Source: Yuukianura sp. NJ FZ-2021 (Eukaryota). From it: a stretch of DNA of 64,000 bases. The DNA lies in assembly GCA_046563655.1 (NCBI GenBank), contig CM102289.1, positions 6,758,001 to 6,822,000 on the forward strand, read 5' to 3'. The notes beneath the pieces were generated by a model. The model worked only from the letters and a program-made list of their open reading frames with translations, had not been told where the DNA came from and searched no databases. A program made the position numbers and the translations under genes. The stretch's first letter is position 1; every line of letters begins with the position of its first letter. Shown in pieces: positions 271 to 54,200 of this stretch.

Positions 271-3200
271 TTGATGAATTGGCAGCATCAACAGGGTAAG
301 TTACACAACAAAAGAGAGCCATTTTAGGTTTTCCATTGCGCCGACGTACTTACTATACTGATAGCTGTTTCCACGCATGAAATGCTTAACACGTATCTGG
401 GCATCCACCTTCTAGTTAGTCGCTTTTAGATCAACTGTGCAAATCTTGTCACCTTCGAATATTTCAACCAATGCTTGCTTACCAGCTGATGTTGAGCATT
501 GTACAAGAGCTTGGAACAATACTGGAAACTGTTTGCAGGTACATCGGACTGTCAAGTCTCAGTGGAGATGCGAAACGTGTCAACGAACGAATGAATTTTC
601 CAAATCCCATAATTACTGTTACGGAACATACGCCTGCGCCAACTCCATCGCCGGAAAGAATGTACCGGTAAGGCATAGCTGAAGGCGGATTGAACGGATT
701 GAGGTTTGAATGTATTTTTTGAACTTAGACGCCGAGCAAGCTCCGTCGACAGTCAGCTGAGTGAATTTGTGCAAAAATTTGTGCAACATCGTAGCGGTGG
801 GGGTTGGAGACGACGTAGATTTCTTGGAAGATCCAAAAGCGATAGTAAGATTAACTACAGCGTGAATGAAGCAATGGAGGCTCCAGGAACTGCGCCGTAT
901 ATCACTGCTGATGGAGAGATTAACGTTAAAGTGATTTTTAAGGTAAATTCAAAACTCAACCCCTGTTCAAAATTTGATCAATGTCGATAAAACATGTTCA
1001 AAATTTTCCGCCTTTTCAATAATGTAAAGTTAACATGATTCAACAGGCATTGCATACCGTCTGTTCCCGTGAATCCATCGTACGATCGGTCAAAGTGTGT
1101 GCAGTGGCTCTCAGCTTGATTGACCTGCTTTTCCTAGAGGTTGAAAAAGACGAAGAGGTTGCCCTTGTTTTGGACACAATTATCAAGTATGTTACAAAAA
1201 TCTTAATTTTGTATTAATTAATTAATTCAAATTAATTAAACAGGATAACGACTTCTATGGGCTGTGCCCATGGTTGTGGAGATGCCCAACGCTGTAGCCA
1301 ATCAGACACTGTCCGGTCACATGTTCATAGCTTGTTCCTCCGAATTTCACACAAATTCCGGGTTCAGTTTGGAAAATGTTTTCAGCGCATGGTCACTACG
1401 CAGCCGCTGGCTGACATTATGGACTTCTTCCATTCACTTTGTGGATTTTGTATTGACCCGACTACACTACTGTCACCTCAAAGTAAAGACTTAAAAAAAA
1501 CTTAAATGAGGATTTGAGTTAAAAATGTTTTCGAAATTTCAGATCCAAAAATTCGAGATTTCTACGCTAGCTACATGAGTGGAATGGAAAACAATCACGG
1601 GAAAGTGGAATGCCACATTTTCAAGGCCGTTTTTAAAAGATTAGTTTCCCGCCTAGCTTCTGTTTCAAAGGAACTGAAAAATTCGGACAATATGGTAAGA
1701 CCCTATGAAGAAAAATTTACTTCCAAATTTCAAAAATTAACAACTGAAACCGTTTACTTCTTAAACTTCTAACATTCTAGTCACTTTACTGCGATGTTCG
1801 TCAATTCATTACTTATGTTTACGAAAACGATGGAAACACTTTTCGAAAAGTTGCACTCTCAGCTCTGATCGACTCTGTAAGAATATTTGGTGCTCCAAAT
1901 TATTTCAAAATACATTCCAGATTTTCAAAATTCTGTTTTAGATGGAAAGTCCAAACAAAAAAGATGCTTCTAGACAAACTCAAACTACCCGTATTGTGAG
2001 GTATGTTATGCGTTAGAGATATTTTTGTTTAAAAGAAAAACATATAAAAACAAAATTCAGTTTAAAATTCAATTTGAAATCGAAAATTTGTAGAAGAGTA
2101 CAGCAATCTGAAGATGCTGATTACTACGTAGTCGACGAAACGCAGGATAGGAGTGGCCCTTCCAGTGGAAACAACAACAGGAAAGGATTTTTCAAAAAGA
2201 AAAGTTCATCATCTACTTGTGCCGTTAGAAAAGAAATACTTGCACAAACTTAAAAATTCTCGCATTTCAAAAAATTTCAAGCTTTAAATTATTTTTTTGT
2301 TGTTTTCAGAGTATGGGTGACACTGAAAATGCTGGAGAAAGTCCAAGTGGAACTATGACTAGGAAACATGCTGCTCTAACTCCGAAATCCAGTGAAATTG
2401 ATTTGGTGCATTCAATCAAACGTGGTGGCGCTCCAAGCGGTGGTCTTGGTGGTCCGAAAAAAGAATCACGGCTTGTCAATTGGCTTAAGCGTGGGACTGG
2501 TGACAAATCAAAATCTTTTGATTTTGATTTTGAAGATACCACTTCAGTAACTTCCGGTTCTGGACTAAGCGAACCACAAAAACGAACAATCCGCCAAGCC
2601 ACGATTGTACAAAGAGCAAAACGTCGAGTTGAAGAGAGACTTAAAAGGATGAAATTAAAACGAGATTCTTCAAATGAGGAACATGGATCGGGTGGAGGAA
2701 TTAGTAGAAGAGGATCCATGGAAAATATTTCAAATGAAAATGTAACATTTTCAAAAATTAATTTCATATTTTCAACATTATAAGAATTTTGTTAATGTTT
2801 AGGTTGTTGGAGAGACTAATGAGTTCGTAGTACTCAAAGAACGAAGACTTGTAAATCCAACCGTAGTGAGAGATGGATTGACCAGATTCGGATTTTTACT
2901 AGAAATTACACATCCTGGATCTCTTCCAGACGCGCATTTACTTGCAGCCATTTTGGATTTGGTATGAAACTGTGTTTCAGGTTTGAATTTTTTTTTTAAA
3001 TTTTGAATATTCTTCAAAAATTTTTGAATTTTTAGCCAAAAACAGTCGTGGTGAGTCGAGCAGCGATATTGCTGGAATGCTGTTTCCTTGTCCACGCTTG
3101 CAACCGAGGTCATTGGCCTCTCTGGATGAAATTGCCACTGTTTAGACCTTCATGTGCAGGAATTACGATAGGGGTTACTAAACCGCAAGGAACCAAGTCT

Positions 3201-9200: not shown

Positions 9201-11344
9201 ATCATGGGCAGTGTGAGTGCTCCACGTGCTGGGAGCATCTGTGAACGAAAATTGAAAAATTCTACTTGTCAAATCGCGTTTCTCGGTTTGAAAATTTTGT
9301 GCGTTTGTTTTGATACGGAACTGAGCACTGAATGGCCACGTACGGTACGGTTGATTCATGAACTTGGAAATCGCGTTGAAGGTGCTGCAGCACTTTGGGA
9401 TTTTCTGGAATTTGTTGTAACTGTTCGAACTTCAATTTATCCAATGTTCAGACCATTTATTGCACAGAAGGTAAACTTTTAGCAATGTTATCTTAACTTG
9501 TGTGCATTTCATTAAAGTTTTTGTCTTGTACGTAGATGGCAAAAACTCCAACAAATGACAATGAACGTCACTTTCAATTTGTCATACGAGAAAAGATGCG
9601 TGGAATCACTTTGGGAAAATGTAAAGGAAGTCTGCTCATAGAAATTGCACATCAGTTGAAACAACTGAAAGAAGAGTTGGAAAGCAAGCAAGGTTTGTGT
9701 TTCAAAATTTGAATTTGAAAAATAGCATTTGATTTTTTCTGATTTTCGAATTGGAAAAAATTGCAGAGGAAATTATTTTGAACAAACGAAACCTGGTCAG
9801 TGAGCATGAAGCGACTCGAAGGCCACGCCCATCACTATCCGAACTTTTTCCGGGAATCGCTGCTCGCTTCAGCACTTCTGCGCCTACGACTGAAGAAAAA
9901 GCCAATCGCGCGTTAAACAGAGAATCTAGTGTTAGAGTCAAAGCGTCATCACAGGGTAAGTGTATTTTATAGGTTCAAGTTTTTTGAAAGTTCGGAAATA
10001 AGTGAAAATGGAATCAAATTTTAAAATTGCCGCTTGAGCCAAATTCAGATTAACCAATTGGGTTAATTGTTAAACTCTTAGAACTTTACCTGTCAAACAT
10101 GTTGCAAGAAGAAAATGAACATGTCGTCACACAATAATTTCTTCTGTTCATGGAATTCAAAAATTGTCTTGTTTGAATTTTGTCTTTCCCGCGCGCTCCC
10201 TCTCGCGCTTTGAATGTTTAGTTTTTACACAATGACCTTGCCGTTGTCTCTGATTGTTTGTTGGATATTCTCTAAAGGTCGAATGGTGGATCGCTTCATG
10301 CGTCGAGTCTCCATTGCAGGAGATGCACCATTTACAATTCCTGAAAACTCTGTACTCAAGGCCAAAGGTTTAATTTTTTCATCAAAAGTCATCATCTACT
10401 TCACTTTTTTACCTATCGCTTTTCAGCCGCCATTTTGTTTTGTTACAAATTTGCACATTCTGTCACCTAAACCGTTTGAAACTTGTTTTGGATGTTTTTG
10501 AACTGCACCTTTATGCATGCCTTCATAGACTTTTTGAATTGCACAAACTTGCTATTCTGACAAGTGAAATCTAACGCGCAATTTTTCAAAATTTGGATTT
10601 ACAATAGAACGGAGTGAAGAAAGTTTTGAAGCCCATCCAGAAAGTGGAAGCGTTCCAGAAACGAGTTCAATTTTGGAGGAGGAGCCAAAATCACATCGAC
10701 TCCAGCGCCAAAAATTTCAAAGCCGGAAGACGTTTCGTTTTCGAAAAAGTCGAAAAGGCAACTTAGAGGTGCGTTTTGAGTTTTCAAAATTTTGACTTCT
10801 TCTACATGTAAAGTTTTTTTTGATTTTGTAGTTTTCAAGTATTGATGTTGGAGAAGAGAGTCCTGAATCTCCATTGTCTCCTTTGCCAAAAGAAGAAGCA
10901 ACTGAAGAATTACTTCCAGACGATCCGCCGCCAGAATCAAAAATTCCCGCCACTGTTTGTGGCAGCGGTGGAACTTCGCTGCGTATTCGACCAAAACGCA
11001 AGAAATCCGTTTCTCCACAAAATGGTGCTGATTGTGACAGTCAAAATTCTTTTTCAAGAACTTCTAGTACGTGTGGCTACAGAGAAAGCTTTGGTGAGTT
11101 TTAGTTTGAGAGAAAAGGCTAAGGTCAAAGGTCACTGCTAATTTTTGTTCCATTTGCGTTACACTTAGGTTCTGCTGAAAGATACAGTTTACAAATGTTG
11201 GAAAGACTTGAAGTTCCTAATGCAGAGGAGCTTGAGCGGGAACGAGCGGGTGGTGGAAGTAGTCGGAGCGGCAGTACTTCATCAAAGAAAAGAAACGAAA
11301 AAAGCGACAAAGTCGGTGAAGACGAAGACGATACTCTCATCTGA
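271..11344 (+). CDS. unc80: UNC-80 (NALCN channel complex subunit), multi-exon, 5' end probably outside the window
   Basis: Spliced ORFs carry UNC80-typical segments: HPGSLPDAHLLAAILDL, VVSRAAILLECCFLVHACNRGHWPLWMK, RFQVLWRSRHQVWPRMEE..FKAPPPGIEFTLPSPKIG, DLKQILRKEQADASILLTANVPAAKKIIVHGP, ELLGLDVLHKFMW, SLLKVSPYDSATMGCRGLQRY. The last exon ends EDEDDTLI-TGA at 11342-11344. Confidence 0.93.
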
Positions 11345-11612
11345 CTGTAGTTCGATCACATGATTTTCGGATGTGAAAATCACGTGATCGGTAAAGTTCG
11401 TTGATTTTTTAGTTTTCGTAACAATGGCTTCCATGTTTTAGTCATCCAGTAAACTGCTTGTGGTACTCAAAAATTGTTGTCAAATTGAAAAGTGCCAAAA
11501 CATTTAGTTGAAATTTGAAATATTCCAAAATAAAAACAGTTTGGGTAATGGAAGCCATACGTTCGTACCTTGTTCAAAGGTCAAAGGTAAACAGTTTTTC
11601 TTTTTTATTATT

Positions 11613-11700
11613 ATGTTTTACAATAAAATTACACAATGCGTGGTGTTTATAACATAAAAAAGTTTTATTCCATAATATTCCGCTCCTTGTACAATTTTTA
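11613..11700 (+). repeat. Left copy (first half) of a diverged direct repeat; continues at about 12979-13060 after the inserted element
   Basis: atgttttacaataaaattac...gttttattcca..aat..tc.gctc.ttgt.caatt aligns without gaps to 18733-18820, roughly 80% identical by eye. Confidence 0.8.
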
Positions 11701-12978
11701 TTAAGTAATCGTCAGATACTTATAGGGATCGTCTTGTCCGTCCGTCCGTCTGTCGTCCGTCCGTCTAATGGTTACAACTCGATAACCACTGAATTGATTT
11801 TTAACCGGTGTTTTTATATTAGTAACTAACTACTGACCAGATAACTAAAAATTAGTTTTTGGATTCACCTCGAGTGACCTCTAATGGTGTCAAAGGTCAA
11901 GCAGGTCAGGCTATTTCCAATTGTGTTATTTAAAAAGAGTGATTTTCCTACTAAAGTTTTAGCATTTTGGAATTTGGAATTATGTTATTTAAAAAGAGTG
12001 ATTTTCCTACTAAATTTTTTAAAGTTTTGGAATTTGGAATTGTGTTATTTAAAAAGAGTGATTTTCCTACTAAATTTTTAACTTTTTGGAATTTGGAATT
12101 ATGTTATTTAAAAAGAGTGATTTTCCTACTAAATTTTTAACTTTTTGGAATTTGGAATTGTTATTTAAAAAGAGTGATTTTCCTACTAAATTTTTAACTT
12201 TTTGGAATTTGGAATTATGTTATTCAAAAAGAGTGATTTTCCTACTAAATTTTTAACGTTTTGGAAATTGGAATTATGTTATTTAAAAAGAGAGATTTTC
12301 CTACTAAATTTTTAACGTTTTGGAATTTGGAATTGTTATTTAAAAAGAGTGATTTTCCTACTAAATTTTTAACTTTTTGGAATTTGGAATTATGTTATTC
12401 AAAAAGAGTGATTTTCCTACTAAATTTTTAACGTTTTGGAATTTGGAATTATGTTATTTAAAAAGAGTGATTTTCCTACTAAATTTTTAACGTTTTGGAA
12501 TTTGGAATTATGTTATTTAAAAAGAGTGATTTTCCTACTAAATTTCTAACGTTTTGGAATTTGGAATTATGTTATTTAAAAAGAGTGATTTTCCTACTAA
12601 ATTTCTAACGTTTTGGAATTTGGAATTATGTTATTTAAAAAGAGTGATTTTCCTACTAAATTTCTAACGTTTTGGAATTTGGAATTATGGACCGATTCGG
12701 CAGCGGTTTGCGGGGTTCCGTTTTTCTGACCTCCAGTGACCTCGAGGGTCAAGGCTCAAGGTCTTAGTTTTCTCTATAATTGGCAAACGGATGGACCGAT
12801 TCGGAAGTGGTTTCTGGGGATGGATGTTTGACGACGCGAGGACTAAGATTCCGAATGTTGTTTGACCTCAAGTGACCTCTAATAATACCATAGATCAAGG
12901 CCAACAATATCTTGCGCGGGAACTCTCTATAATTGATCTAACGATACTTATTTATATCGTCTTTGCAAGAAGTTTATT
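11701..12978 (+). mobile_element. Non-autonomous Helentron/DINE-1-like (HINE) element, copy 1
   Basis: The 5' end ttaagta(a)tcgtcagatacttatagggatcgt is followed by a (GTCC/GTCT)n microsatellite. A subterminal inverted repeat atct(a)acgatactta lies near the 3' end, there is a central tandem array, the insertion site is T-rich and no TSD is evident. Both ends match the copy at 52405-53523. Confidence 0.82.
11917..12688 (+). repeat. Tandem satellite, about 59-bp unit, about 13 copies, inside the HINE element
   Basis: Unit ttttggaatttggaattatgttatttaaaaagagtgattttcctactaaatttttaac(g/t) is repeated head to tail. Confidence 0.97.
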
Positions 12979-13666: not shown

Positions 13667-16600
13667 ATGACCACCGTTATTCAAAAGCACAAGGACTCTC
13701 TCATAAGTCTAGGTTAGTGGCACACGTTCTAAAGATTTCTAAACTTTATAAACTTAAACTATTAGCATTATTTCTATATTCGATGAGAAACTTTTTATTG
13801 CCTGTTGCAAACAAATCCTTTAGCCTAATAAAAAAAAAGAAATGAGATTTTGAAAAACCTGTGGGAAATGCAACACTTAAAATTTAAGAGAAAGTTGAAC
13901 CTAATTCACCCTTGAGCTTTGGACTAAACAACTGTAAAAAGTCTGTTACAAATATTTTGTCGGGACATGGCAAGTGTTCAAATTGGCTAAATTAGCTAAA
14001 TTGGTAAGTTTTTTTCTTTGGGTGTAACAAGGCCGTGTCAATCTCTTATAAGCTGGTGAAAATTTGCAATTCAACCTCAATACTAAATATTTTTGTTTCG
14101 GAAATGACTGAATCATGACACTTCTTACAGACAAATTGGACAGTTGCAACTTAAATATTGAAACGCAGCACGCTCTTCAGGGGTTGGATGGAGAAGAGGC
14201 ATACCTCTGGAAAGTTCGAACGACTTCAAGATGGGCCAGAAAGAAGTTCGACATAAACGTTACTGATATGAACATTAACTATTCACCAACTGGAAATTGC
14301 TGTGCTGGAAATGGAACATACACAAGTAAAAATGTATTTTACAATTATTATCGATACCAGTTTTCAGAAACTGCTTAAGTGGTCGGTTTCAAATTTTATC
14401 GGAAACTAATCGTGTAAATAATTTTTTTAAAGTTGCCATTGCTGATATTCAAGAAGTCCGGAGGGGATGGAAAAGTAAAAAATTTAGGAAAATTGAAAAC
14501 CAACAAAGCAAGCCCTCTAACAAACCTGAAATTGAGGAAGGAATGTGTTTTTCGATCATACATGGCGCAAGACGGAATAAAACACTGGATCTTGTAGCCC
14601 AGAGTGTAGCTACAGCCGAAAAATGGGTGAGTGTGTTTGTAAATTGATCAACTCATAGAAGGCAAATCCTAGAAGAACATCGTTTTTACCAATCTCGAAG
14701 TATTTACACCAAAAATATTGAATTTTATAAAGGCAGATGCAATTGAAAAAATTGTAAGCTGGTACCAAATGACGCAACTGGATGCTGGCTATGAGCTTTG
14801 GCTACGACAAAAATTTAACTCTGCCGACGTCAACCATGACAAACGCCTAACTTTAAAAGAGATCAAGCATTTGCTTCATGACCTCAACATTGAAGTAACG
14901 AAAGAAGAAGCCTTCAAGTTATTTACCTCAGCTATACCGAATTCAGGTCAAACCGAGAAAAGCAAATTAACAGTAGAAGCTTTAACTGAAGACGAATTTT
15001 TGGTGCTCTATTTTAAATTAATAGAGAGGCAAGAGGTACTGGAAATCTTTAAAAGGTATGGCACGCCAAAATGCCTTTATGCCTCGTTCAAAGTGGAAAC
15101 CATTGTTTCACTTCAACTAAATCTTTTCCAGTTATATTTCACCGTATGGGGAATTCACGGCAACACAACTTCAAAAGTTTCTTCAAACAGAGCAGGGAAA
15201 AGGCTACGAATCAATTTCAGGAGAGGAATGTTCTAAACTACTGCAAAAGCATGAACAGTCTGATTCAAAACTCAAAGGTCGAATGACGCTAGCTGGATTT
15301 CAAAATTTATTGATGTCTCCTGAATTCGACATTTTTGATTACCAAACGCATGGTACCGTTTACCAAGATATGTCGTACCCATTGTCGCATTACTACATTG
15401 CCTCCTCTCACAACACGTAATAAGCTCACTACAAATGCCATCAGGCGATAATACAATATATCATGTAAATGCTCTAATGCAAGCGCGTATTCTAATATAA
15501 GCGCATACTCTAATGCAAGCGCGGTTTCAGCGGGGGCAAATTGCGATATAAGCGCGGTAGCTAACCTGAGTTTAAAGCAGAGCCTAGAGCAAAGTGACAT
15601 CATCTGTTTAACTTCTATGTTGCTAATTTGACTCAAATCAAAATGTAGCACTTAAATACAAGTTTTAAAAATGGTGTAACTAAAAGACGATCGTTTGATC
15701 TCAGTTTTAAGTTAAAAGTGGTTCAGTATGCTTCTACTAATACCACGCATGGTACCGCAGCTCACTTCGGAATACACCGAAAACAAGTCGGTTGGCTGAA
15801 GCAAAAGGATAAAATCGGTAAAAATTTAACTAATTTTAGCTTTCGACTCGGGAAACCAATTTTCTAAAGAAGCAGAAAAATGGTTTACGATTGGATTTTA
15901 AATCAGCGCACCAACCAGCAAAGTGTCTCCTTCAAATCTATTCGTGTAAAAGCTAGGGAAGTCTACTCTGCAGTGCTTCAAACAAACGAATTTCAGGCTA
16001 GCAGTGGTTGGCTACAAAAATTTATGAAGCGCCATGACCTCAGTTTGAGAAAGAAAACGTCATTGGCTCAAAAAGATCCAAATTCGTTATTAGAGAGGTC
16101 CAGATTTACTGATTCTGATTCTAAAAGCTGATTCTAGGCCTAATAGGGGCGGTTACAATATTTTTTAGAATCAATTTCTCCCCTTCTAAAAACATAACTC
16201 CGAACCTGATTCTGATTGTGCCTTACTTAAACACATTCAAATTTTGAATTTCCCGGGGTGAACTACAGTCAGAATCAGAAAAAACTGGAACTCAGCACCA
16301 TTTTACTCTGATTCTGATTCTACTAGAGTCAGAATCAGTTTGAAATCTGGACCTCTCTATTGAGAAGCTTGTTGAGTTCGCCATGTACACTTCCAACCTC
16401 GCTGTTACGAATAAAATTTCCAACCCAAATATTATTGCCATGACTGGAATATTTTTTCACATGCCAAGTATTACTACAGTGGGCACAGTTGGAGGAGGCT
16501 TGAAGAAAGCAACAGTGACACCAGCGACGAATGGGATCACTATTAATTGAATTTTGGCTCACTTAAAACTTATTAATTATTCCGGTAAAAAATAGTGTTC

Positions 16601-18514: not shown

Positions 18515-18732
18515 AAGCTAACTGCCATGTACCTGTTTGACACTCGTTACTATAAGCCAATCAAAATTTTGAATTGCATAAAATCTGTGTTCTGACAATT
18601 AAACTTTATTCTCCATTTTTCGAAATTTGTATTTATAACTGAAAGGAGTGATTAAAATTTTGACGTACATTCATAAAGTTTAAGCTTTCGAGAAACAAGT
18701 TCCATTTTAGAGGAGGAGCCAATTATCGTTAA

Positions 18733-18917
18733 ATGTTTTACAATAAAATTACATCCTGCCTAGAGTTTATAATATAAAACGGTTTTATTCCACAATGTTC
18801 AGCTCGTTGTCCAATTATCATTTCTTGTAGAAGAAAACTTCCTGAAGTTAGTCTTTCGCTTCCTATTGTGGTTGCTTATGGTTTTCCAGAACATGAACAA
18901 TGCATACTTCAATGTAA
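18733..18917 (+). repeat. Right copy of the diverged direct repeat (uninterrupted, 'empty-site' version)
   Basis: Matches 11613-11700 joined to about 12979-13060 (tcctattgtg..ttttccagaaca..acaatg..tacttc..tgtaa). Confidence 0.8.
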
Positions 18918-19041: not shown

Positions 19042-19857
19042 ATGCTGTCTTTCCGTCACGTACTTTTGATTATTGCAACAATTTCCTTAACCTTCCATTT
19101 TCAAAAAGTACTAGGAAACTTTGAACATTTAAATCAAACTAAGCTGTTATTCTCATTGTTGGTTTACTTTTGATTTGGAATTTCATTTTCCAAAGGTTGA
19201 AGGCGCCGTTCGATTCTGCACTACGTCTGAAATGTGCCAAAAAGTCCGCGCAAATGACTACGATGCAGGAATCTTTAATGCCTGTAGAAGGTCCGTTGTA
19301 GACGATCAGACTTCCCTGACTGTTTGTGGAATTGTTTATGTTGATGTGAGTTAACATCAATTTAACACATGACAAAGTAACTTTTAACAAATTCTTAAAT
19401 CACTTTATACGAGCGTATCTAATGTGTAAAGTTTGCTGTAAACATTTTTTGGGTATGTTTGTGTGAATTCAATCGCCAAAATTGCTCTCGCCACAATGTA
19501 TTTTCTAAAGCACAGGCTACTTTAATTCAATTTTAATTCAGAAAAAAAATTCAGTTGTATTGTATTGCTTTTTTTCATTTGCTGTTTTAACAGAATCCGG
19601 ATATTAATGAGGCCTCTACAATACAAAATCCAAATAAAGAAATATGTACTCGCGTGCAAACGCATCATGCGCTGCGTAAGGCTTGCAGCGATTACGTCAA
19701 GAGCTACAGTCCTTACTACAATGAATCCAGAGGAAGATTCTACAAGCACCGCTACACCTCGTTTAGAACCTACACTTGCGAATTTGAAGGTCAAACTTTA
19801 CTGTTTTGCAGCGTCCAAGCTGTCAAAGACGTACTTGACCCATCAAAACGGAGCTAA
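19042..19857 (+). CDS. Small secreted cysteine-rich protein, paralog A (exons 19042-19107, 19196-19345, 19594-19857)
   Basis: Signal-peptide exon MLSFRHVLLIIATISLTFHFQK, exon 2 with 4 Cys (RFCTTSEMCQK..NACRR..TVCGIVYVD) and exon 3 NPDIN..ICTR..ACSD..YTCE..LLFCSVQAV. Both introns are phase-0 GT-AG, and the layout matches paralogs B and C. Confidence 0.8.
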
Positions 19858-20409
19858 GTTACCCAGAATTAACCTTTGGCTGAATAAAACTTAAAAAATG
19901 AAATCCAAAATCCAAATCAAATAGGAATTTAAAATATTATTCGAAAAAAAATACAAAATTGAAATTGGCTTCACTGAGATTGCCAAATACAAAAATATGT
20001 TATTTGGATTTATAATAAAAGTTATTTATTTACTAGTTTTTAGATTTAAGTTTGGATTCTTATCTTTCGTTCAAGTATTTGAGAATGCTGTTTTTTTTTA
20101 TTATGTGACAGCCTTTAGAATTCGAGGGTAGTATTTCCATTATGTCCTTTGAATTCACAAAAAGTTGAAAAACAATAGACAAATTGTGCCAGGCGTCTCA
20201 AATTTGACATTTAGAGGCTACAGCAGAGGCAACTTGGTCTTATGATATTAATATTCCACAAAATACAGGTCAATTTGGTGTCAATTCCATGACATGAAAA
20301 AATTAAAACTGAAGACCAATATGATATTCTGTTACATAGAAACTTTTAGACACTACCAATTGAGCCGCTCTTTACAACGCCACAATTTTTTTGGGTTCTT
20401 GAACAGAAA

Positions 20410-21086
20410 ATGGCATTTCTAGCGTTTTTGCTCGTGGTTGCTTTTGCGTCCAATATTCACTTCGTATCGGTAAAATAAAACTTACCAGAAAATTAATTTC
20501 TTTTGAAATTCAAAATTATGCAAAATTATGGAAATTGGTGCAATGTTTCTCGTAGAGTGAAATCATCTACTGCAAAACTTCTGCCGATTGCACAGCCATA
20601 CGAGCAACGGATAATCCGAAAGGAATTTACGTTAATTGCCAACCATTCGTAAAATATGTCCCATTAAGCACAAAAGTCTGTTCTGTCGTATATGTCGAAG
20701 TGAGTTCTGTTGCTTTTTTTGGTCAGTTTTTTTTTTTGCTTTTCGCTCTTTCTTCAATCTTAACGTTAATTTAGAATTAACCAAGAACAAATTGAATCAG
20801 CAAACTACGGTTTAAATTATGCCTATTTTGTACTGTTTATTGCTAGAATCCAGATATTAACAGGAACGCAACTGCTGGAAATCCAAAAGAAGGTGTTTGC
20901 AGCGTTCTGACAAGCAACACGTTCAAAAACCTTTGTAGGAATTTCCGAATGACCCACAGTCCATTTGTTGGTACAGAGAATGGAAAGGGATACACGAACT
21001 GCTACACAAGTGCCAAACCTTATGGCTGCACCTCCGTCGGCAGTAAACAACTGCTGTTCTGCAGTGTCCAGGCCGTGGAATGTTGA
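20410..21086 (+). CDS. Small secreted cysteine-rich protein, paralog B (exons 20410-20469, 20556-20699, 20847-21086)
   Basis: MAFLAFLLVVAFASNIHFVS | SEIIYCKTSADCTAIRATDNPKGIYVNCQPFVKYVPLSTKVCSVVYVE | NPDINRNATAGNPKEGVCSVL..LLFCSVQAVEC*; canonical splice sites, open frame. Confidence 0.82.
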
Positions 21087-21376
21087 GCTCATCAACACAT
21101 TTTGAATTTGATAAAGTTCTTAAAATAAGATGATTTGACAATAATTGAACGCAGTAATCATCGTAGTATTATTAAAAAGCTGAATTGAAAGTGATCGAAT
21201 TTTGAATTTCGTAGCTATGCTGCAGTTTACTATAAAAAATCCAAATGCTTTGATTGTATTAAAAACAGGGCCATCTAAATTACAGTCATATTAAAAGTTT
21301 CTGAGTAATCAGCAGTTCTGCCATAAATTGTTTTATTTTAACAATTTGAAAATTCAAATGTAAATAGTAACATTTT

Positions 21377-21760
21377 TTAGTTGATGAATCTCCTGGCTCT
21401 TGTACCGCCGAATGCAATAGCGATTTGATCATTATCGTAGAGCTTTTCAAGTGCTGCTCTCCATTCTGATTTGTCGTAGCCGTAAACAGAAATTTGAGCT
21501 TTTTGACGTTGATGCAAAAATCCTTCGACCAACCATAACACAGCTTCAAATGCTCTTGGCGTTAAAAAATCAAAGAAAAATTGGTTTAGCAAGACTTTTA
21601 ACCTAAAAGTTGCTTAAGTCTACACTCTGCATGAATTTCCTTTACCATTGACAAAAATTACGGAATTTCCAAACTCTGGATAATGTGTGGTAATCAAAGG
21701 AACAATGTCGGACAGTCCTTGTAAACACGGGAGACAAGCATGTTGTCTGGAATTGAATCC
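21377..21760 (-). pseudogene. 5'-truncated duplicate of the last 1.5 exons of the CRAL-TRIO gene at 23606-24824
   Basis: GFNSRQHACLPCLQGLSDIVPLITTHYPEF and PRAFEAVL..FGGTRARRFIN* are cut off at the duplication junction. Confidence 0.8.
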
Positions 21761-21816
21761 ACTTTAACTCAATATTAAATTCATTTATTTCTTTTTTTCA
21801 TTTGTTGTGTTAATAG

Positions 21817-22080
21817 AATCCGGATATTAATGAGGCCTCTACTATGCAAAATCCAAATAAAGAAATATGTACTCGCGTGCAATCGAATCATGCTCTGCGT
21901 AAGGCTTGCAGCGATTACGTCAAAAGCTACAGTCCTTACTACAATGAATCCAGAGGAAGATTTTACAAGCACCGCTACACCTCTTTTAGAACCTACACTT
22001 GCGAATCTGAAGTGCAAACTTTACTGTTTTGCAGCGTCCAAGCTGTCAAAGACGTACTTGACCCATCAAAACGGAGCTAA
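21817..22080 (+). other. Orphan duplicate of paralog A exon 3 (intact acceptor, open frame)
   Basis: taatag|AATCCGGAT..., reading NPDINEASTMQNPNKEICTRVQSNHALRKAC..DPSKRS*. It has no exon 1 or 2 of its own. Confidence 0.8.
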
Positions 22081-22632
22081 GTTACCCAGAATTAACCTTT
22101 GGCTGAATAAAACTTCAAAAATGAAATCCAAAATCCAAATCAAATAGGAATTTAAAATATTATTTGAAAAAAATACAAAATTGAAATTGGCCTTACTGAG
22201 ATTGTCAAATACAAAATATGTTATTTGGATTTATAATAAAAGTTATTTATTTAACTAGTTTTCAGATTGAAGTTTGGATTCTTATCTTTCGTTCAAGTAT
22301 TTGAGAATGCTGTTTTTTTTATTATGTGACAGCCTTTAGAATTCGAGGGTAAGTATTTCCATTATGTCCTTTGATTTTACAAAAAGTTGAAAAACAATAG
22401 AGAAATTGTGCCATTCTTCTCAAATTTGACATCTAGAGGCTACAGCAGAGGCAACTAGGTCTTATGATGTTAATATTCCACAAAATACAGGTCAATCTGG
22501 TGTCAATTCTGTGACATGAAAAAATTAAAACTGAAGACCAATATGATATTCTGCTACATAGAAACTTTTAGTCAGTACCAATTGAGCCGCTCTTTTCAAT
22601 GCCACAATTTTTTTTGGGTTCTTGAACAAAAT

Positions 22633-23314
22633 ATGGCATTTCTAGCGTTTTCGCTCGTGGTTGCTCTTGTGTCAACTTTTTCCAATATTCCTTTCGTATC
22701 GGTAAAATAAATTTACCAGAAAATTAATTTCTTTTGGAATTCAAAATTATTCAAAATTATAGAAATTGGTGCAATATTTCTCGTAGAGTGAAATCATCTA
22801 CTGCAAAACTCCTGCCGATTGCACAGCCATAAGAGCAACGGATAATCCGAAAGGAATTTACGTTAATTGCCATGCATCCGTAAAATATGACCCATTTAGC
22901 ACAAAAGTCTGTTCTGTGGTATACGTCAAAGTGAGTTCTGTTGCTTTTTTTGGTCAGTTTTTTTTGCTTTTCGCTCTTTCTTCAATCTTAACATTAATTT
23001 AGAATTAACCAAGAACAAATTGAATCAGCAAACTACGGTTTAAATTATGCTTATTTTGTACTGTTTATTGCTAGCATCCAGGTATTAACAGGAACGCAAC
23101 TGCTGGAAATCCAAAAGAAGGTATTTGCAGCGTTCTGACAAGCAACCAGTTCAAAGACCGTTGTAAGGATTTCCGAACGACCTACAGTCCATTTGTTGGT
23201 ACAGAGAATGGAAAGGGATACAGGAACTGCTACACAAGTGCCAAAGCTTATGGCTGCACCTCCGTCGGCAGTAAACAACTGCTGTTCTGCAGTGTCCAGG
23301 CCGTGAAATGTTGA
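22633..23314 (+). CDS. Small secreted cysteine-rich protein, paralog C (exons 22633-22701, 22787-22930, 23075-23314)
   Basis: MAFLAFSLVVALVSTFSNIPFVS | SEIIYCKTPADC..NCHASVKYDPFSTKVCSVVYVK | HPGINRNAT..LLFCSVQAVKC*; duplicate of paralog B. Confidence 0.82.
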
Positions 23315-23605
23315 GCTCATATACACATTTTTAATTTGATAAAGTTCTTAAAATAAGATGATTTGACAATAATTGAACGTAGTAATCAACGTAGTATTAT
23401 TAAAAAGCTGAATTGAAAGTGATCGAATTTTGAATTTCGTAGCTATGCTGCAGTTTACTATGAAAAATCCAAATGCTTTGATTGTATTAAAAACAGGGCC
23501 ATCTAAATTACAGTCATATTAAAAGTTTCTGAGTAATCAGCAGTTCTGCCATAAATTGTTTTATTTTAACAATTTGAAAATTCAAAAGTAAATAGTAACT
23601 TTTTT

Positions 23606-24824
23606 TTAGTTGATGAATCTCCTGGCTCTTGTACCGCCAAATGCAACAGCGATTTGATCATTATCGTAGAGCTTTTCAAGTGCTGCTCTCCATTCCGATT
23701 TGTCGTAGCCGTAAACAGAAATTTGAGCTTTTTGACGTTGATGCAAAAATCCTTTGACCAATGATAGCACAGCTTCAAATGCTCTTGGCGCTAAAAAAAT
23801 CAAAACCAAAATTGTTTTTGCAACACTTTAAACGTGAAAGTTTTCTACGGCTACACTCTGCATGAATTTACTTTACCGTTGACAAAAATTACGGAATTTG
23901 CGAACTCTGGATAATGTGTGGTAATCAAAGGAACAATGTCGGATAAGCCTTGTAAACATGGGAGACAAGCATGTTGTCTGGAATTGAATCCACTGAGGTC
24001 AATCAGTATGTTGTACTGCGATACATCTTTTCCAGTAAGTGCTTGACCATACACGCGTTCCGAAATTTTTTCTAAAATGTAAATTTGGTAGCGCCGAAAC
24101 TCGTCAAATCTTCCAGCCAATAGAAATCGTCGGACGTCCCATTTGTTCAAAACGTAGCTAAGAACTGTTTTAGAAAAAGTGTAGTCAATAAAGAACTAAA
24201 ATTAAAATTTTTAAACAGATTTTAGTTTACTTTTTAAGTAGGTCAATTTTTAAATTTTGAATATACTATACCAACCTGGACGTCCCTTCTTATCAACGCC
24301 GTCCACTGTAACAGGAAACTTTTTTTCCATTTCAATCATTTCCTTTTCTTGGAGAATTTCGTCAACTTTGTTTTGCTTTCTCCATTTGAAGTTCTAGTTT
24401 TTAGAAAATACAAATTTTTCGTGCTTTTTTAAATAAAAATTCTTTGAAGAGTTTAGTTTCTAGTAAAAAATAGCTGGATTTGACTAAACAAAAATTAATT
24501 TACCTCTCGAAGTAACTTCACTGTTTCGGAAACATCAAGATTTTTTCTTCTTAAAAAGTGTATCAGGTAGGAGTCCAGTTTTTGGTAGTCGGTGTATAAA
24601 AGTCCATCAACAGATTTTCTAAGCTAAAATTAAAAAAAAATCAATCAAGTAAATACAAAACTTACAATTTTAAAATTTAGTGGTAGAAACAAAATTTCAA
24701 CCTGCTTTAAAGCTTGCGTTTCCTTTGTAGTGTACTGTGTATCAGTGTTTACTCCAAACGCTTCATAAATGTGAGCAAATAAAGCAACTCCAGCTAAAAC
24801 GACGGTAAAATACTTTGCTTGCAT
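23606..24824 (-). CDS. CRAL-TRIO/SEC14-like lipid-binding protein with N-terminal signal peptide (5 exons)
   Basis: MQAKYFTVVLAGVALFAHIYEAFG leader, then DSYLIHFLRRKNLDV, WRKQNKVDEIL, GVDKKGRP, ILIDLSGF, HYPEFANSVIFVN|APRAF and QIAVAFGGT. Confidence 0.88.
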
Positions 24825-29234: not shown

Positions 29235-29680
29235 ATTCCAGAAATTTTGTATTTTTATGAACTAAAAGCCACTTTTGTTAACTATATCTTGAGGCTTGTA
29301 TTTTTTCCAAAATTAATTTTAAATCTATTCTTTTCCTTTGATCAATCCTGGTCGTGACTGCACTAGTCAAATTTTGTAAAACGAAATTAGTTTAGGTGGA
29401 AAACGTATAGATCACTTCAAAATTTTCTAATTTTAGAATTTTGTTGTAAATGCTTGTTTAATTAATTCGAAGAACGTATTTATTTATTTTCTGAGGTTTG
29501 ATAACTCTAAATCTCTCATATTGTGAACTGTTCTAAGTTTTTGTTTTTTGATCTCATTTCAAATTCTTAATTTCACAAATAAATTTCCAGGTTGGACATT
29601 ACTGGCGAATATTAGAATCTCCTAGTTTAAGCTTGAATTTAAGTCATTCCAGTTCAATTGCGGAGTAAACGTAATTTACA

Positions 29681-31216
29681 TTAGGCTTTTGTTCCTCCAT
29701 ATTGTTTCGTAAGTTGGTCAGCATCAAATACCTGAAGAACAAACTTCTGCCACTCGCTCCGGTTTGTTCCAAATACCTATTTAAATAAAGTTCACAACAG
29801 GTTTACAAACTGGTTTTCAACAAAGTTGAACATAATTTTTTGTTTGTCGTGCCGTCACTTCAAAACAATGTCTGGACAAAGGTCACAACACAAAACTCCC
29901 AATTTGCGTATATTGTCTACCCATTTAGGCAACAAAACTTTCCATAATCAATGGATTTACCTTATAAGCTCTTCGAGTTTCTTCGCTCATCAACTGCAGC
30001 ATGATGTTGGACACGGCTGGAAAAAGTATTTCAATATATTTTTCAAGGTTGCACAAAAACAAATTCAAAAAGAGAAACTCCAAACAACTTACTTTCAAAT
30101 ATTCTCGGAACTAAAATTCAATTCAATGTTAAATAAATAAATTCAAAACTTTAATCCACTTTTTGAAAGCTTCAGTAACAAATTTAATTCGCTTTTTGCT
30201 TACCGTTGAAAGCGATGATATATCTTATTGTATTGGGATAATGTCGCTCGTATGTGTTCACCAAATCGACATACCAGGGAATACCTAGATGTTTCAAAAA
30301 CGCAATAAAACTAAAACATATAATAAAGTATTAATAATCTGTCATAAAATAATATCTTATAGATTAACATGGTATTGTGTTAAATGCAATTACAGGCAAG
30401 GCAAGCATGTTGTCGTAAGCTGTAGTTGCTCATATCCGGAAACCATATAAAATTTGTTGCACCTAGTCGGCGCATTGCAGCCATGTTGGATTCAAAAATG
30501 AAAAATATATATCGCGTCAACGCTTCTCGCTTTCCGGTCAGCATGGCTTTTCGGATATCCCACTTTGAATATGTTAGTTGGTAGGCAGGGTTTCCTAATT
30601 TGTCAACAGCTTTGTCGAAAGTCGCAGGATACGATTTGTGTAGCGCCAACATTTCCGGTTCGGTTAAAATATTGTCAATGTTGTTCTCCTTTCGGTGTTT
30701 CATACTCTGCAAAATAGTTCAAACATACCGAAAGAAAAATTTTACTTCCCAATTTCTAATTTGACGTTTTTGAAATTTTAAATGTAAAAACCATTTTGAG
30801 TGCTGTAGCTGCTTTTGTAACATCGTACTGCTTGTCTGTAAGCAGAGCATAAAAATTAGCTAATGTATGTTCCCTGTATTTTCTCTTTCGAAATTTTCAT
30901 GAAGTTGCAAAATTGTTTTGTTACTTCGCAGCCAGTTGATAAGAAAGCGATCATGATTTTGATAGTCCAAGTAGAGATCATTCTTGACTTCTTGGCGCAA
31001 CTAAAAAGTAAAAAATCCATTCTTTTTTCAAATTCGTAGAATTTTGACCAAAAAAAATGAAAAAATCTGATAATTTTTTAGTGTAACCTTTTCTAGCGCC
31101 TGCTTTTCTCCGGCAGTGTAGACGTTGTTGACATTACCTACAATGGACTCGAGCTGAACTTGATGTGGGAAAATATTTGAAAATACGAAGATAAAAGGCA
31201 ATATTTTGGAAATCAT
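29681..31216 (-). CDS. CRAL-TRIO/SEC14-like protein with hydrophobic leader (8 exons, including an 18-nt micro-exon at 30093-30110)
   Basis: MISKILPFIFVFSNIF leader, DRFLINWLR, AVDKLGNP, DMSNYSLRQHACLAC, YERHYPNTIRYIIAFN|VPRIFE, QLTKQYGGTKA*. Confidence 0.86.
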
Positions 31217-31881
31217 TGTGCTCAATCTCAAAATGATGATTGCTGAGCGGAGTTAAGAAAAGACACTCAACATTGGCACACATTAAACTTATTTACTCAA
31301 TTCAGAAATGAATGTGTTTTGATCAGGAAAAGACTAAAAGTTTTAGGGTAACTTTTTTGCTCAATTAATTAAGGTAGGCAATTTGACGTAGGTAGAGCCG
31401 CAAGCCTGAATTACAAAAGTGGCTTGTGTTATGTAAGCATTGCGTCGTACGAAGCAGACTAGTAATATTGCATATTATATTAAAAAAAAAGTAGATGACT
31501 GGATATATCACATTCTTCCTTATTTCAAGAATGTATCTATCTATTTCTATTTAACCCCACAATTCCAAACTGCCAAGTTCCAACTTCGAAGAAGAATGTG
31601 TGAAAAAACAAAGACTAGGTTCGAAAAAAAATTGAAATGAATCTTTGCTGAATCTTCTGTGAAACGTTTGGAAGAAAACTGATATTGCTTTTACTGATTT
31701 TGGAGGTTTTGACTAGTCTTAGTCTCTCGTTTTGTGAACTGTTTAGAGTTAATGTCCCATGATATCATTTTAATTTCGTAATTTCAGAAATAAATTTGCA
31801 GGTTGGACATGCTGACGCATAGTACTAAAATGTCTTAGTTTATGTCCAGCTTGATTTTAGTAATTCTTGTTTATTGTGGAA

Positions 31882-33404
31882 TTAAGGTTTTGTTCCTCCA
31901 AATTGTTTCGTAAGTTGGTCAGCATCAAATATCTGAAAAACAAATTTCTGCCACTCGCTCCTGTTTGTTCCAAAAACCTATTTCAAAAAAAGTTCAAAAC
32001 AGCTTTACAAACTGGTTTTCTAAGTTCTCGGAAAACGCTCTTTTGTTTGGCTGTATAATCACTTTATAAATTTTTCTGGACAAAAGTTACATCACCAAAC
32101 TCCCAATTAGCATATTTTACACCCATTAGGAAAGAAAACTTTCCATAAAAGACTAATTTCCATCAAAAGACTAACCTTATAAGCTTTTCGGGTTGGTTCG
32201 CTCATCACCTGTTTCATGATGTTGGACACGGCTGGAAAAAAAAAGTATTTGAATTTTATTTCCAAAATTGGACAAAAACAAGAAAATAGAGAACATCTAT
32301 ACAACTTACTTTCGAATATTTTTGGGGCTAAAATTCAATATCAAATGAGCAAATTAAAGAACTTTTAGATCAATTGTTTGAAAGCTTCAGCAGCATTGCT
32401 TTCTACTTACCATTGAAGGCGATGACATATCTGATTGTGTTGGGGTAATGTCGCTCATAGGTGGTGACCAAGTCAACATACCAAGGAATACCTAGATGTT
32501 TCAAAAACAAACTATAACATATAATAAATTAATACAATCTGTCATAAAATGAACTATAGAATGGTATTATGTGAGTAAGTGAAATTACATGCAAGGCAAG
32601 CGTGTTGTCGTAAGTTGTAGTTGTTCATGTCTACAAACCATATAAAATTTGTTGCACCGAATCGGCGGATTGTAGCCATGTTGGATTCAAAAATGAAAAA
32701 ATTATATCGCGTCAACGCTTCTCGCTTTCCGGTTAACATTCCCTTCCGCATGTCCCACTTTGAATATGTTAGTTGTTGGGCAGGGTTTCCTAATTTGTCA
32801 ACAGCTTTGCCGAAAGTTACAGGATATGATTTGTGTAGCTCCAACATTTCCGGTTCGGTTAAAACATTATCAATTTTGTTCTCTTTTCGGTACTTCATAC
32901 TCTGGAAAATAATTCAAAACAGACCGAAACAAAAATTTTACTTTCCAATTTCTAATTTGACTTTTTTTTTTTAATTTTGAAACCATTTTGAGTGCTGTAG
33001 CAGCTTTTGTAACATCCAACTCCTTGTCTGTAAAAACAGCATGCAAATTAGTTAATTTTTGTTCACTATAATTTCTGTTTCAAAATTTTCATGAAGTAAC
33101 ATAATTTTTTTTGCTTTTACTTCGCAGCCAGTTGATAAGAAAGCGATCATGATTTTGATAGTCCAAGTACAGATCATTCTTGACTTCTTGACGCAACTAA
33201 AAAGTAAAAGTGAAGATGGTTTATTTCCAAATTCATATAATTTTGACAAGAAAATGAAAATCTTTGGTACTTAACCTTCTCTAGCGCCTCCTTCTCTTTC
33301 GCAGTGTAGACGTCGTTGACGTTAGCTATAATGGACTCGAGACGAACTTCTTGTGGGAAAATATTTGAAAATACGAAGATAAAAGTCAAAATTTTGGGAA
33401 TCAT
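31882..33404 (-). CDS. CRAL-TRIO/SEC14-like protein, tandem paralog of 29681-31216 (micro-exon 32310-32327)
   Basis: Same exon structure; MIPKILTFIFVFSNIF leader, DMNNYNLRQHACLAC, AFN|APKIFE, QFGGTKP*. Introns and flanks also align with the neighbouring copy. Confidence 0.86.
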
Positions 33405-33909
33405 TGTGCCCAATTTCCAAGTGATTGGTTACTTAAGAGGAGTTAAGAAAAGAACTTAACCTTTGCACGGTTTAAACTTATTTGATCCATTAATTAAAGT
33501 AGGCAATTAGATGAAGGTATAACAACAACCTTCAATTTGAAAAGCGGTTTGGATTATGTAAAATTGGCGTCGTTCGAAACAGGTTAGTAATGCTGAATAT
33601 ATGCAAAAGATTACTAAAATTATCGCTTTCTTCTTATTTCAAGATTTATCTAATGCCACAATGCTAACCTGAAGCACATGTCAAAAAAAACACGACTAGT
33701 TTTAAAAAAATGTGCAACCTTGATTCAATCTTCTCTGAAAAATAAGCTGGAACTGAACAAAGTGGTTTTATTTTTTCGTTTTCACAAACTTGGAGCTGCA
33801 TGTGTAGTGAGTTCTTATTTTTATAAAGTGGCCTGTCCAGTGGTGCTAAAAATCAAATGAACAAGTTGGGCTGAATTCGTGAAACATCGTAGATTTTAAC
33901 AACTATGTT

Positions 33910-51268: not shown

Positions 51269-54200
51269 TTATTTGAAAACACGCGGATTTGCAGGTTTTC
51301 CGGCGAAGCGAACACCACCATTTTCTCCTTTACCCACCGCAGTTTTTGATGCAGCTTGTTCATACATTTTCTTTTGCTGACGAAGTTGAGCGTAACTGAG
51401 TACCGGCTTCCGATACGGTTCAATAACTGGCTTGAACTTGGTTGTCGATGCACCACGGGAAGTCACCAAAGGGGATGCTGGAGTACTTGTAAATGGTTGC
51501 AAGTTTTCCATGTCCACCACCGTAGTCAAGTTTGCCGAACTCTGCGGAGCAGTGTGAACATCTCGAGGTTGTTCAAAGTTCTTGTCCATGTCAAGGATTT
51601 GGGCCAGCTCACGCTTCACAGAAGCAGCAGGATTGGGGACCACTGCGTTTGTTCCCGTCGGTTCTGGGTTTGAAGTGACGCGGCTTCCAACAGGTTGGTT
51701 GAGAAGCTTCAGACTCTCTTTGTTCAGTTGACGATAGGAAACGGTCTGAGCCACTTTTGTGAATTCGATACGACGACAACCAGGGGCAACTTTTGCTGCT
51801 GCAGCGGCCTTCTGGATTGGTGGTGTTTTTGTGGCTGGTTTGCGAGAAACATGTCCGACTGTGAATGACTGAGCAGAGTTGAATCGCGAGTCCACTTTGG
51901 CGCCAAAAGCAATTTGAGGCTTGACTGAACGACGCTGTGGTGGTAGCGAATTTGACGCTTTTGCAATTCTGCCCCATGTTTGGCTTGGACGACTCAACTT
52001 GGCAGTTGGAGGTGGGGTTTTCTTTAGCGGAGACTTTGAGATTTTCGGTTTCGGACTTTTGGATTTCCCTGAAGCCGGATTTTTGGATGCCGTTGCTGGA
52101 GCATTTGTCGTCTTGGACACAGGTACTGGTTGGTTAACAGGAGCGACAGTTTCAGAAACAGCTTGGTCTGAAAGCTGAAAAAAAAAACATAAAATTTTTA
52201 AAACTTCAAAAACACATTTCAAAAAATATAATTTTGATACCTTTGGTTGGTTGACGGCAACTTCGGGAAAAGTGACTGTAAATTCAGGTTTGAATTCTGG
52301 AGACGCTGTTTCCTCTTCCATTGTATTCTCGACGATTTCATCATTTTGCATTGTAGATCGTTCTAAGTCCGATGCAAATTCAAAAATAGTGGGATCCTAT
52401 AAAGAATAAACTTCTTGCAAAGACGATGTAAATAAGTATCGTCAGATCAATTATAGAGAATTCCCGCGCCGGATATTGTTGACCTAGACCTCTGATATTG
52501 TTAGAAGTAACTTGAGGTCAAAGAGCATTCGGCATTATATTAATATTAATGCGAATATTATATTAATTAATATTATTAATATTAATATGTATATATTACT
52601 TAATATTAATATATACAATATTAAAATTAATTAATTTTAATATATATATAATATTAATATTAATTAATATATTAATAATAATATTAATCCTCGCGGCGTC
52701 AAAAATCCATCCCCGAATTGTGGGGGAAAAAATGACCTTGACCTCTGACCCTGCTAGAGGCCACTCAAGCTCATCAAAATCGGATCCCCGCATTCCCCTT
52801 CCGAGTCTGCCCATCCGTTTCCGTGATGTAAATGGAGCATAACCTTGACCAATGACACCAATAGAGGTCACTTAAGGTGAATCCAAAAACTGATTTTTAG
52901 TCATCTGGTTTGTAGTTACTCATTAAAAAGCTGCAAGGTCACAAAGTTGTTGTCTCAATGCGATGAACACCTTTTGTAAGGGTCATTTTTTTGATTTCCG
53001 TGAAAAAATGTGCTTGACCTTGACCTTTGACCCGGAAATTGGCCACTTCCGGTCAAACCAGAGACCGATTGGTCACCCCTGTACCATGTGAAGGTCATCT
53101 GCGAAGACAGGTTGAAAATCGGTCCTGTGGTTCCTGAGTTATAGACGCGCGTAGAATGAGCGACGCCATTTTGCAACTTTCATCGTCTATATCTCCAGAA
53201 CCGTAGGTCAAAGGTCAAGGTCACCTATAGCAAAGTTGTTCCCCTCAATGAAATGAACAACTTTTGTAGAGGCCATTTGTCCAAATTCCGTCGAAAATGT
53301 ACTTGACCTTGACCTTTGACCCGGAAGTTGGCCACTTCCGGTCAAACCGAAAACGACTTGTTCACCCCTGGACCATGCGTAGTTGATCTGTGAAGACAGA
53401 TTGAAAATCGGTCCAGCGGTTCCAGAGATATTGTAGCTAGTATACAGACGGACGGACAGACAGACGGACAGACAGACGGACGGACGGACATTACGATCCC
53501 TATAAGTATCTGACGATACTTAACAACAGTTAGTTAATTAAACAGTTAAAGTAATTAAAAACGTAGGTGAAGTAAATCAAGTTTTAGTCTAAAACTTACA
53601 TCTTTCCACATTCGTTGAACAATGTCGTTGGCAATCTCCTCTCCATTTTCAGAAAAGATCTCACTGGAAGTTTTCGGTTGTGAAACGTCTTCAACCGATT
53701 CTTCGGTGTTTGCGTCTGACGATCCCGCAGTACTTGCAGCAATTTGATTTTCGTTTTCATCTGCTCCCGTAACAAACCGAGTTCGTGAAGCAGAGGCCAG
53801 CATCGTCGGAGAGAAAGTCTTGCCAAGTTGATACTGAGAAGTCAGAGGAGTACACAATTTTGATGCCGATTTGCTGAAGCCTGATGCGAAAAGGATGGAT
53901 CTCGACGATTTCGATGGAAACAGCGTCGCCATGTCAGTTTGTGACGCTTTTGATGATTCAGGACCACCAAGTATGCTTGAGTTAACATTCGACATGGAAG
54001 GAGGCATGAGACCAACAAAAGAATCGAAACCAGCAATTCGATGAAGCAGAATGTTTTCCGACGGTGGTTTGGGTGTCATGATTCGATCAGCTTCGGCTTG
54101 CAATTCAACAATTTCGGCTTCAGCCAATCGCAACTCCTCCAGAATATTTTGATACGCTTCTTGAAACTCCTCACGACGACTGTGTGGTCTTGGTAAGTTT

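Follow-up and report, generated by a model that had tools for sequence, protein, structure and literature searches.

A pair of neighboring genes in the 64,000-nt window analyzed here, a stretch of the Yuukianura sp. genome, encodes two versions of a secreted cysteine-rich protein that differ almost only by amino acid replacements, which raises the question of how the two versions came to lie side by side and whether selection has favored their differences. The two genes, B (20410-21086, plus strand; 147 amino acids, 10 cysteines) and C (22633-23314, plus strand; 150 amino acids, 10 cysteines), are preceded by a third, A (19042-19857, plus strand; 159 amino acids, 8 cysteines), which lies outside the interval of the original prediction. 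All three are intact, as had been claimed: each has an open frame of three exons without stops, and the GT..AG introns are all in phase 0. The exons most likely follow the layout of the protein, namely, a signal peptide (exon 1, at 19042..19107 in A, 20410..20469 in B, and 22633..22701 in C, where it is 9 nt longer than in B), an N-terminal module with four cysteines (exon 2, at 19196..19345, 20556..20699, and 22787..22930, respectively), and a linker followed by a C-terminal module (exon 3, at 19594..19857, 20847..21086, and 23075..23314), with four cysteines in exon 3 of A and six in that of B. The signal peptides were read from the hydrophobic N terminus; the donor of A's exon 1 is non-consensus and was placed by inference, and the corresponding exon of paralog E (see below) ends alike. 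The mature proteins of A to C comprise 127 to 134 residues, lack adjacent CC pairs, and are mildly cationic (pI 8.4 to 9.1; B, 8.7; C, 9.1), and the B/C protein carries one N-glycosylation sequon, in the linker. In exon 2 of gene A, at 19262 and 19316, the sequencing contigs hold at least two coding variants, both of them non-silent (D to N and L to M).

A recount of the differences between B and C returned the numbers given earlier for exon 3 (240 nt; 14 base changes, all of them non-silent, which replace 13 residues) and exon 2 (144 nt; 7 non-silent and 3 silent changes), and both pairs of segments quoted as examples, including QPFVKYVPL versus HASVKYDPF, are correct. Exon 1, absent from that count, adds four non-silent changes, one silent change, and an in-frame 9-nt indel, and the mature proteins differ by 21 non-silent and 3 silent changes. 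The accompanying statements about the pattern of these changes stood only in part. All ten cysteines are indeed kept between B and C, but this retention is no better than chance (P = 0.17 for 20 random replacements missing 10 cysteines). Likewise, the changes cluster only weakly, with a blind scan giving P = 0.03 at a window of 13 residues and 0.09, 0.22, and 0.37 at three other widths. In exon 2 of B, five of the seven replacements fall into the loop of codons 29 to 37.

Both genes are part of a larger repeated segment that the original prediction had missed, along with an orphan exon within it and three further paralogs elsewhere in the genome. Copy 1 of this 2.2-kb tandem unit (19559..21763, plus strand) comprises exon 3 of A, gene B, and a 3' fragment of a CRAL-TRIO gene, while copy 2 (21783..23994, plus strand) comprises an orphan version of A's exon 3 (A'), gene C, and the 3' end of an intact CRAL-TRIO gene; the two copies show 111 differences in 2182 aligned columns (95% identity). 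The orphan exon A' (21817..22080, plus strand), which has no exons 1 and 2 of its own, retains an open frame, an intact AG acceptor, and its stop, and it differs from exon 3 of A by five non-silent and six silent changes. Judging from these sequence features, it might serve as an alternative last exon of gene A. The orphan CRAL-TRIO fragment (21377..21763, minus strand) carries AA instead of AG at the acceptor of its last intron, at about 21562. The complete CRAL-TRIO gene (23606..24824, minus strand), whose 3' part was copied in the duplication and which provides an internal control, is apparently intact and matches Pfam PF00650 above the cut-off. Combined, the passenger coding segments (A' and the CRAL-TRIO 3' part) differ by 9 non-silent and 16 silent changes, with an omega of 0.15 to 0.18 (0.14 to 0.21 when the two fragments are considered individually), a purifying pattern. 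Neutral orphans left by a duplication of identical sequence would have given about 26 non-silent changes rather than the 9 seen (binomial P = 0.007). Most of the divergence between the copies thus probably arose between alleles, at a time when both sequences still belonged to functional genes.

This observation bears directly on the claim that B and C are young duplicates that diverged, which is probably the wrong history, given that the passengers place most of the divergence before the duplication. A young duplication of identical sequence, followed by positive selection separating B and C, would account for the tandem layout, the 95% identity, and the excess of non-silent changes in exon 3, and the dead acceptor of the CRAL-TRIO fragment does represent some decay after the duplication. 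Nevertheless, the constraint on both orphans is unexpected under such a history, as is the presence in the reads of alleles as divergent as the copies, which makes it improbable in our view. The evidence on alleles comes from contigs of four sequencing runs (X1 to X4) of two samples, and all figures are taken from the contigs and difference rows listed. The contigs listed for three of the four runs, all derived from the same sample, include an intron-2 allele of A that continues directly into an A'-type acceptor (joint 19516-21778). This allele shows 21 differences in 231 nt, so that alleles at this locus are as divergent as the tandem copies.

If the divergence was allelic, B and C could also be alleles of a single gene that were falsely joined in the assembly, for example, through a chimeric read from amplified DNA, in which case the selection question would concern allelic polymorphism only. 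Two haplotypes would yield just such a purifying pattern in the passengers, the summed depth over both copies is just 1.15 times that of the flanks in run X3, and in X4 one set of pieces resembles a B/C mosaic entering the intact CRAL-TRIO gene; moreover, none of the contigs listed for the four runs spans the duplication junction. This junction (21759..21763) is, however, free of N and falls on a 5-nt microhomology, CCACT, which one allele of A's intron 2 has in common with the exon of the CRAL-TRIO gene, and the adjacent sequence is unlike both other versions of the A intron seen. Furthermore, a dead acceptor is not expected in a working allele, and the summed depth exceeds that of the flanks in all four runs, with ratios of 1.76 in X1, 2.15 in X2, and 1.49 in X4, with the proviso that contig depth does not equal copy number. 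A false join, to which we give a small chance, is the main alternative to a real duplication, and under both of them B versus C is a comparison of alleles. In the vicinity of the junction, at 21617-21626, loose contig ends from runs X1 to X3 with complementary termini lie on both sides of a 10-nt stretch and resemble a transposon insertion with its target-site duplication, within an intron of a copy-1-type CRAL-TRIO sequence.

We consider it likely that B and C diverged as functional alleles before they were joined and that the duplication is real. According to this scenario, B and C would be two versions of one gene that first diverged as alleles, after which a microhomology-mediated tandem duplication would have put one haplotype of each type, B and C, onto a single chromosome; this would be a heterogeneous duplication and is probably still polymorphic. 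The closest parallel is the heterogeneous duplications of mosquito ace-1, which likewise place two divergent alleles of one locus on one chromosome and give each carrier both versions (PMC6121789). For B and C, by contrast, neither a selective agent nor overdominance is known, and no contig among those listed spans their junction. Since few present-day cases of alleles becoming paralogs are known, according to the same source, a locus that carries its own controls offers a small, testable case of this transition, and this is the most testable new element of the analysis.

The answer to whether selection has favored the differences between B and C depends on the part of the protein and on the neutral yardstick. 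For exon 3 alone, which was picked after the fact as the best of the three exons, an omega test gives P = 0.011 to 0.027 by simulation and P = 0.024 by a binomial calculation; a likelihood ratio test gives P = 0.002 to 0.003, but at a boundary, where the test is liberal. For the mature protein, omega is 2.3 to 2.6, which is not significant (P = 0.10 to 0.15 in a two-sided likelihood ratio test and 0.07 to 0.17 by simulation), and exon 2 has an omega of 0.6 to 0.7. The non-silent rate in mature B/C of 7.2% (21/291) exceeds that of the genes' own silent sites and introns (3.3%, 11/335; P = 0.02). Measured against all non-coding sites of the unit (57/1167), all of its silent sites (5.5%, 77/1402), or its four intron pieces (6.9%, 23/332), P rises to 0.08, 0.16, and 0.51, respectively, and the rate is even below the pooled silent codon rate of the unit (8.5%). 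Because the verdict flips with the yardstick, from P = 0.02 to 0.5, positive selection is suggested rather than shown, and of the diversifying selection originally proposed, exon 3 taken by itself reaches significance, while the whole mature protein does not. What is firm is that B and C are far less constrained than their coding neighbors in the tandem unit (21 non-silent and 3 silent changes versus 9 and 16; Fisher P = 0.0003).

Low constraint could also mean that B and C are redundant or weakly constrained and drift about neutrally, with chance and the choice of the best exon accounting for why exon 3 has no silent changes. The similarity of the non-silent rate to that of the unit's introns and silent sites fits with such drift, as do the nonsignificant results for the mature protein, the chance-level retention of cysteines, and the fact that dN/dS between alleles is drawn toward 1 (PMC2596312). 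On the other hand, silent divergence is locally low, with differences at 2 of 199 intron 2 and exon-3 silent sites versus 14 of 182 non-silent sites (P = 0.001), the replacements gather in a predicted helix (see below), there are no stops, and the sole coding indel in the tandem unit is in frame, the other 12 of its 13 indels being non-coding. Relaxed constraint strikes us as a rather unlikely explanation, and we lean toward selection for variety acting on exon 3 of B and C. Given that dN/dS and site tests between alleles are not readable as they are between species, according to the same source, neither dN/dS nor codeml site tests on B versus C can be interpreted in the usual way. Most likely, the pattern is one of polymorphism or balancing selection and did not build up once the duplication had taken place; the signal is real enough to be worth following up, although it is based on two sequences.

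To see where the replacements lie in the protein, we used AlphaFold2 models of P0003, a homolog from outside this genome, and of exon 3 of paralog E. Mapped from the P0003 model by alignment, a predicted helix spans codons 24 to 37 of B's exon 3 (20916..20957, plus strand; 23144-23185 in C), and within it B and C differ at 7 of 14 residues, compared to 6 of 65 elsewhere in exon 3 (P = 0.001, for a region chosen post hoc). The helix replacements lean off the buried face, although not significantly (P = 0.11 for a one-face pattern). In both models (pLDDT 63 and 57), the cysteines sit on a strand, a helix, a strand, and a strand, in this order; blocks of the P0003 model reach a pLDDT of 65 to 82 over the domain, and the domain-only model, that of exon 3 of E, is poor (pLDDT 57). 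Fold searches against the PDB and viral models returned no match at E under 0.001 and listed no chain with a cysteine-stabilized alpha/beta (CSab) fold, a result that does not exclude this fold, and sequence searches of the PDB gave chance matches only. One of these, Rop (E = 6e-4), arises through a duplicated helix and was rejected; a Frizzled-type domain, considered on account of the cysteine spacing, was discarded in view of the many strands in the models.

The collection of genomic paralogs that the original prediction had called for, carried out with single-exon queries against the 98.7-Mb genome (22 contigs), yielded three more genes, D (contig C7, 3278268-3279000 region, locus L005), E (contig C4, 3200021, locus L011), and F (contig C4, 6211176, locus L023), bringing the family to at least six members; counts from this search are lower bounds. 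D, E, and F have open frames, phase-0 introns, and the same layout as A to C, and E and F add a short fourth exon. Two other matches in the genome were dropped, L030 as AT-rich with stops and L012 for its E value of 1.06 and a stop. Outside the genome, a profile search of 1.84 billion representative proteins gave six matches, of which only P0003 (155 amino acids, E = 3e-7) is a real homolog; four others, which we take from their sequences to be prosaposin-like repeat proteins, and one low-complexity repeat were discarded. P0003 shares every one of B's ten cysteine positions and has an extra cysteine near its C terminus. Found as a singleton, on a JGI/IMG contig of 943 nt, it reads through both intron positions, which suggests a spliced transcript.

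No Pfam family reaches its cut-off with any exon of A to F or with P0003, and the sub-threshold matches to EpCAM_N (E = 0.012 to 0.03), AvrLm4-7 (seen with gene A alone, E = 0.035 to 0.06), and a DnaG zinc ribbon were taken as chance. Searches for longer proteins retained none of 1172 candidates with the exon-3 alignment and one of three with P0003, which was P0003 itself; the ESM Atlas gave no usable match for two queries, the named springtail proteomes gave none, and a metagenome scan with exon 3 of B found nothing in 108 stretches. The one metagenome locus matched by P0003 (L034, among 55 stretches) has no open frame of at least 50 amino acids at the match and was set aside as unrelated DNA. 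Among the papers listed, in a largely open-access literature, for Collembola defensins, defensin-like and orphan genes, and springtail secreted cysteine-rich proteins under positive selection, none describes the family. The view that this is an undescribed, lineage-restricted family of secreted cysteine-rich proteins is therefore supported by the missing Pfam, PDB, and Atlas matches and the single outside homolog. As far as the searches reach, the family is undescribed, and it probably represents a new form of a known fold. It is most likely restricted to springtails; the phospholipase C gene next to A has its two best matches in Folsomia candida and Orchesella dallaii, which makes the animal itself a probable springtail.

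The cysteines of the C-terminal module offer a clue to which fold this might be. Paralogs E and F carry a complete six-cysteine framework, C..CxxxC..C..CxC (chance probability for the spacing 0.004, with the framework chosen after seeing the sequences), which corresponds to the framework C1..C2X3C3..C4..C5X1C6 of CSab (cis-) defensins as defined in PMC5234102. In A to D and P0003, precisely the C2/C5 pair is missing. B and C keep C1, C3, C4, and C6 together with one other pair and have hydrophobic residues at the positions of C2 and C5, so they fall outside the six-cysteine framework and contain neither of the defining defensin motifs. E and F match A to D at the profile level (E = 1e-4, probability 58%), with agreeing exon structures, whereas the exon-2 modules match only weakly (E = 0.016), and no repeat was detected between the two modules (E = 0.4). 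The joint loss of C2 and C5 lends indirect support to a putative defensin-type disulfide pairing of C1-C4, C2-C5, and C3-C6. We tentatively propose that the C-terminal module is a degenerate CSab fold, at slightly less than even chances. As modeled, it would comprise a strand, a helix, an inserted hairpin, and two strands, with C1/C4 and C3/C6 kept and C2/C5 lost in A to D.

Comparison with known families shows how far this resemblance goes. Like CSab defensins, the proteins have a signal peptide and the predicted strand-helix-strand-strand order, and E and F have the six cysteines with CxxxC and CxC; atypical fungal CSab defensins have also lost framework cysteines while keeping their gene structure (PMC5234102). 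In contrast, A to D and P0003 carry a linker and an additional N-terminal four-cysteine module, their C3-C4 spacing is 23 to 30 residues (about 30 in B and C) instead of the 9 to 10 of defensins, the mature protein, at about 130 residues, is threefold larger than insect defensins, and the searches returned no match to CSab defensins in sequence or fold. The collembolan antimicrobial peptides described in PMC10051947 (diapausin, Alo, defensin, diptericin, and cecropin) come from what appears to be the same animal group and are also secreted and cationic, and three of the five classes are cysteine rich. However, the defensin, diapausin, and Alo peptides have 34 to 64 mature residues, far fewer than A to C, and no published cysteine motif of these peptides fits A to D, while E and F agree with the collembolan defensin motif just in its CX3C and CXC elements, differing in spacing and size. 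Homology searches in springtails have found few antimicrobial peptides, with defensins in one of five species (PMC10051947), and a degenerate defensin-derived family that escapes such searches would help explain this gap. The X-tox proteins of Lepidoptera (PMC2728511) are lineage restricted and secreted as well and consist of imperfect defensin-like modules. Nevertheless, they are lepidopteran and contain several repeats, in contrast to the two modules found here, between which no repeat was detected, and to the springtail matches of the neighboring gene, which argues against assigning our family to X-tox.

With regard to function, the B/C protein could be an extracellular, disulfide-stabilized, two-module protein that binds a varying partner. 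Contact would then be made through the exon-2 loop of the N-terminal module and the exposed helix in the C-terminal one, and this surface would be subject to diversifying or balancing selection; variation in the partner would keep different alleles in the population, and carrying both B and C would widen the range of targets. Considering that this is a soil animal and that the fold is the probable one, the partner would most likely be microbial, although sexual recognition is nearly as plausible. Divergent amino acid variants of small secreted proteins are likewise kept within species in the antimicrobial peptides of Drosophila (PMC6764478), but those cases rest on population samples and ours on two sequences. 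We see host defense, as opposed to sexual or other recognition, as an evenly balanced proposition. Fast-changing secreted cysteine-rich proteins are common, and the pattern by itself is ordinary.

Alternatively, the protein might be a ligand in sexual or social recognition (spermatophore, seminal fluid, or pheromone binding), or it might have a new, non-defensin fold, with the spacing in E and F arising by coincidence or convergence. The absence of a fold match, the small family of six genes, the mild charge, and the size speak for these options; moreover, defensin-like folds act as species-specific attractants in plants (PMC3525529), and the defensin-derived multi-module X-tox proteins have lost their microbe-killing activity (PMC2728511). 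A new fold is, however, at odds with the full framework in E and F and with the joint absence of C2 and C5 from A to D and P0003, evidence that bears on the fold and not on the function, and we rate this set of alternatives as rather unlikely. Our preferred explanation, combining allelic origin, tandem joining, and a degenerate defensin-type binder of a variable partner, remains tentative as a whole. It is tempting to go one step further and to speculate, against the odds, that in a soil arthropod two alleles under balancing selection, encoding an undescribed defensin-derived protein of two modules, have only just been tied together on a single chromosome by a natural heterogeneous duplication. 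If true, Haldane's route to new genes would be seen outside insecticide resistance, and the selected surface would come down to one helix in a defensin-type module reduced to two disulfides.

Several other features were observed in the window and near paralog D. Another tandem duplication, likewise about 2.2 kb long but older (29479-33425; 76 to 98% identity), contains two minus-strand genes resembling the CRAL-TRIO gene beside C. Two segments (within 10581-11702 and 18615-18822) that are about 81% alike occur both 7 to 8 kb upstream of the phospholipase C gene and directly behind its downstream end, hinting at an older local duplication. Short open reading frames within the phospholipase C gene (15649-16247) resemble the decayed N terminus of a pogo/Tc5-type transposase, and the gene following paralog D (2630-3100 of locus L005) starts like a putative Cys-loop ligand-gated channel subunit. 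Finally, a tandem array of about 13 copies of a 59-nt repeat (11865-12760), whose flanks recur in inverted orientation some 40 kb away at 52405-53517, is probably a non-autonomous mobile element.
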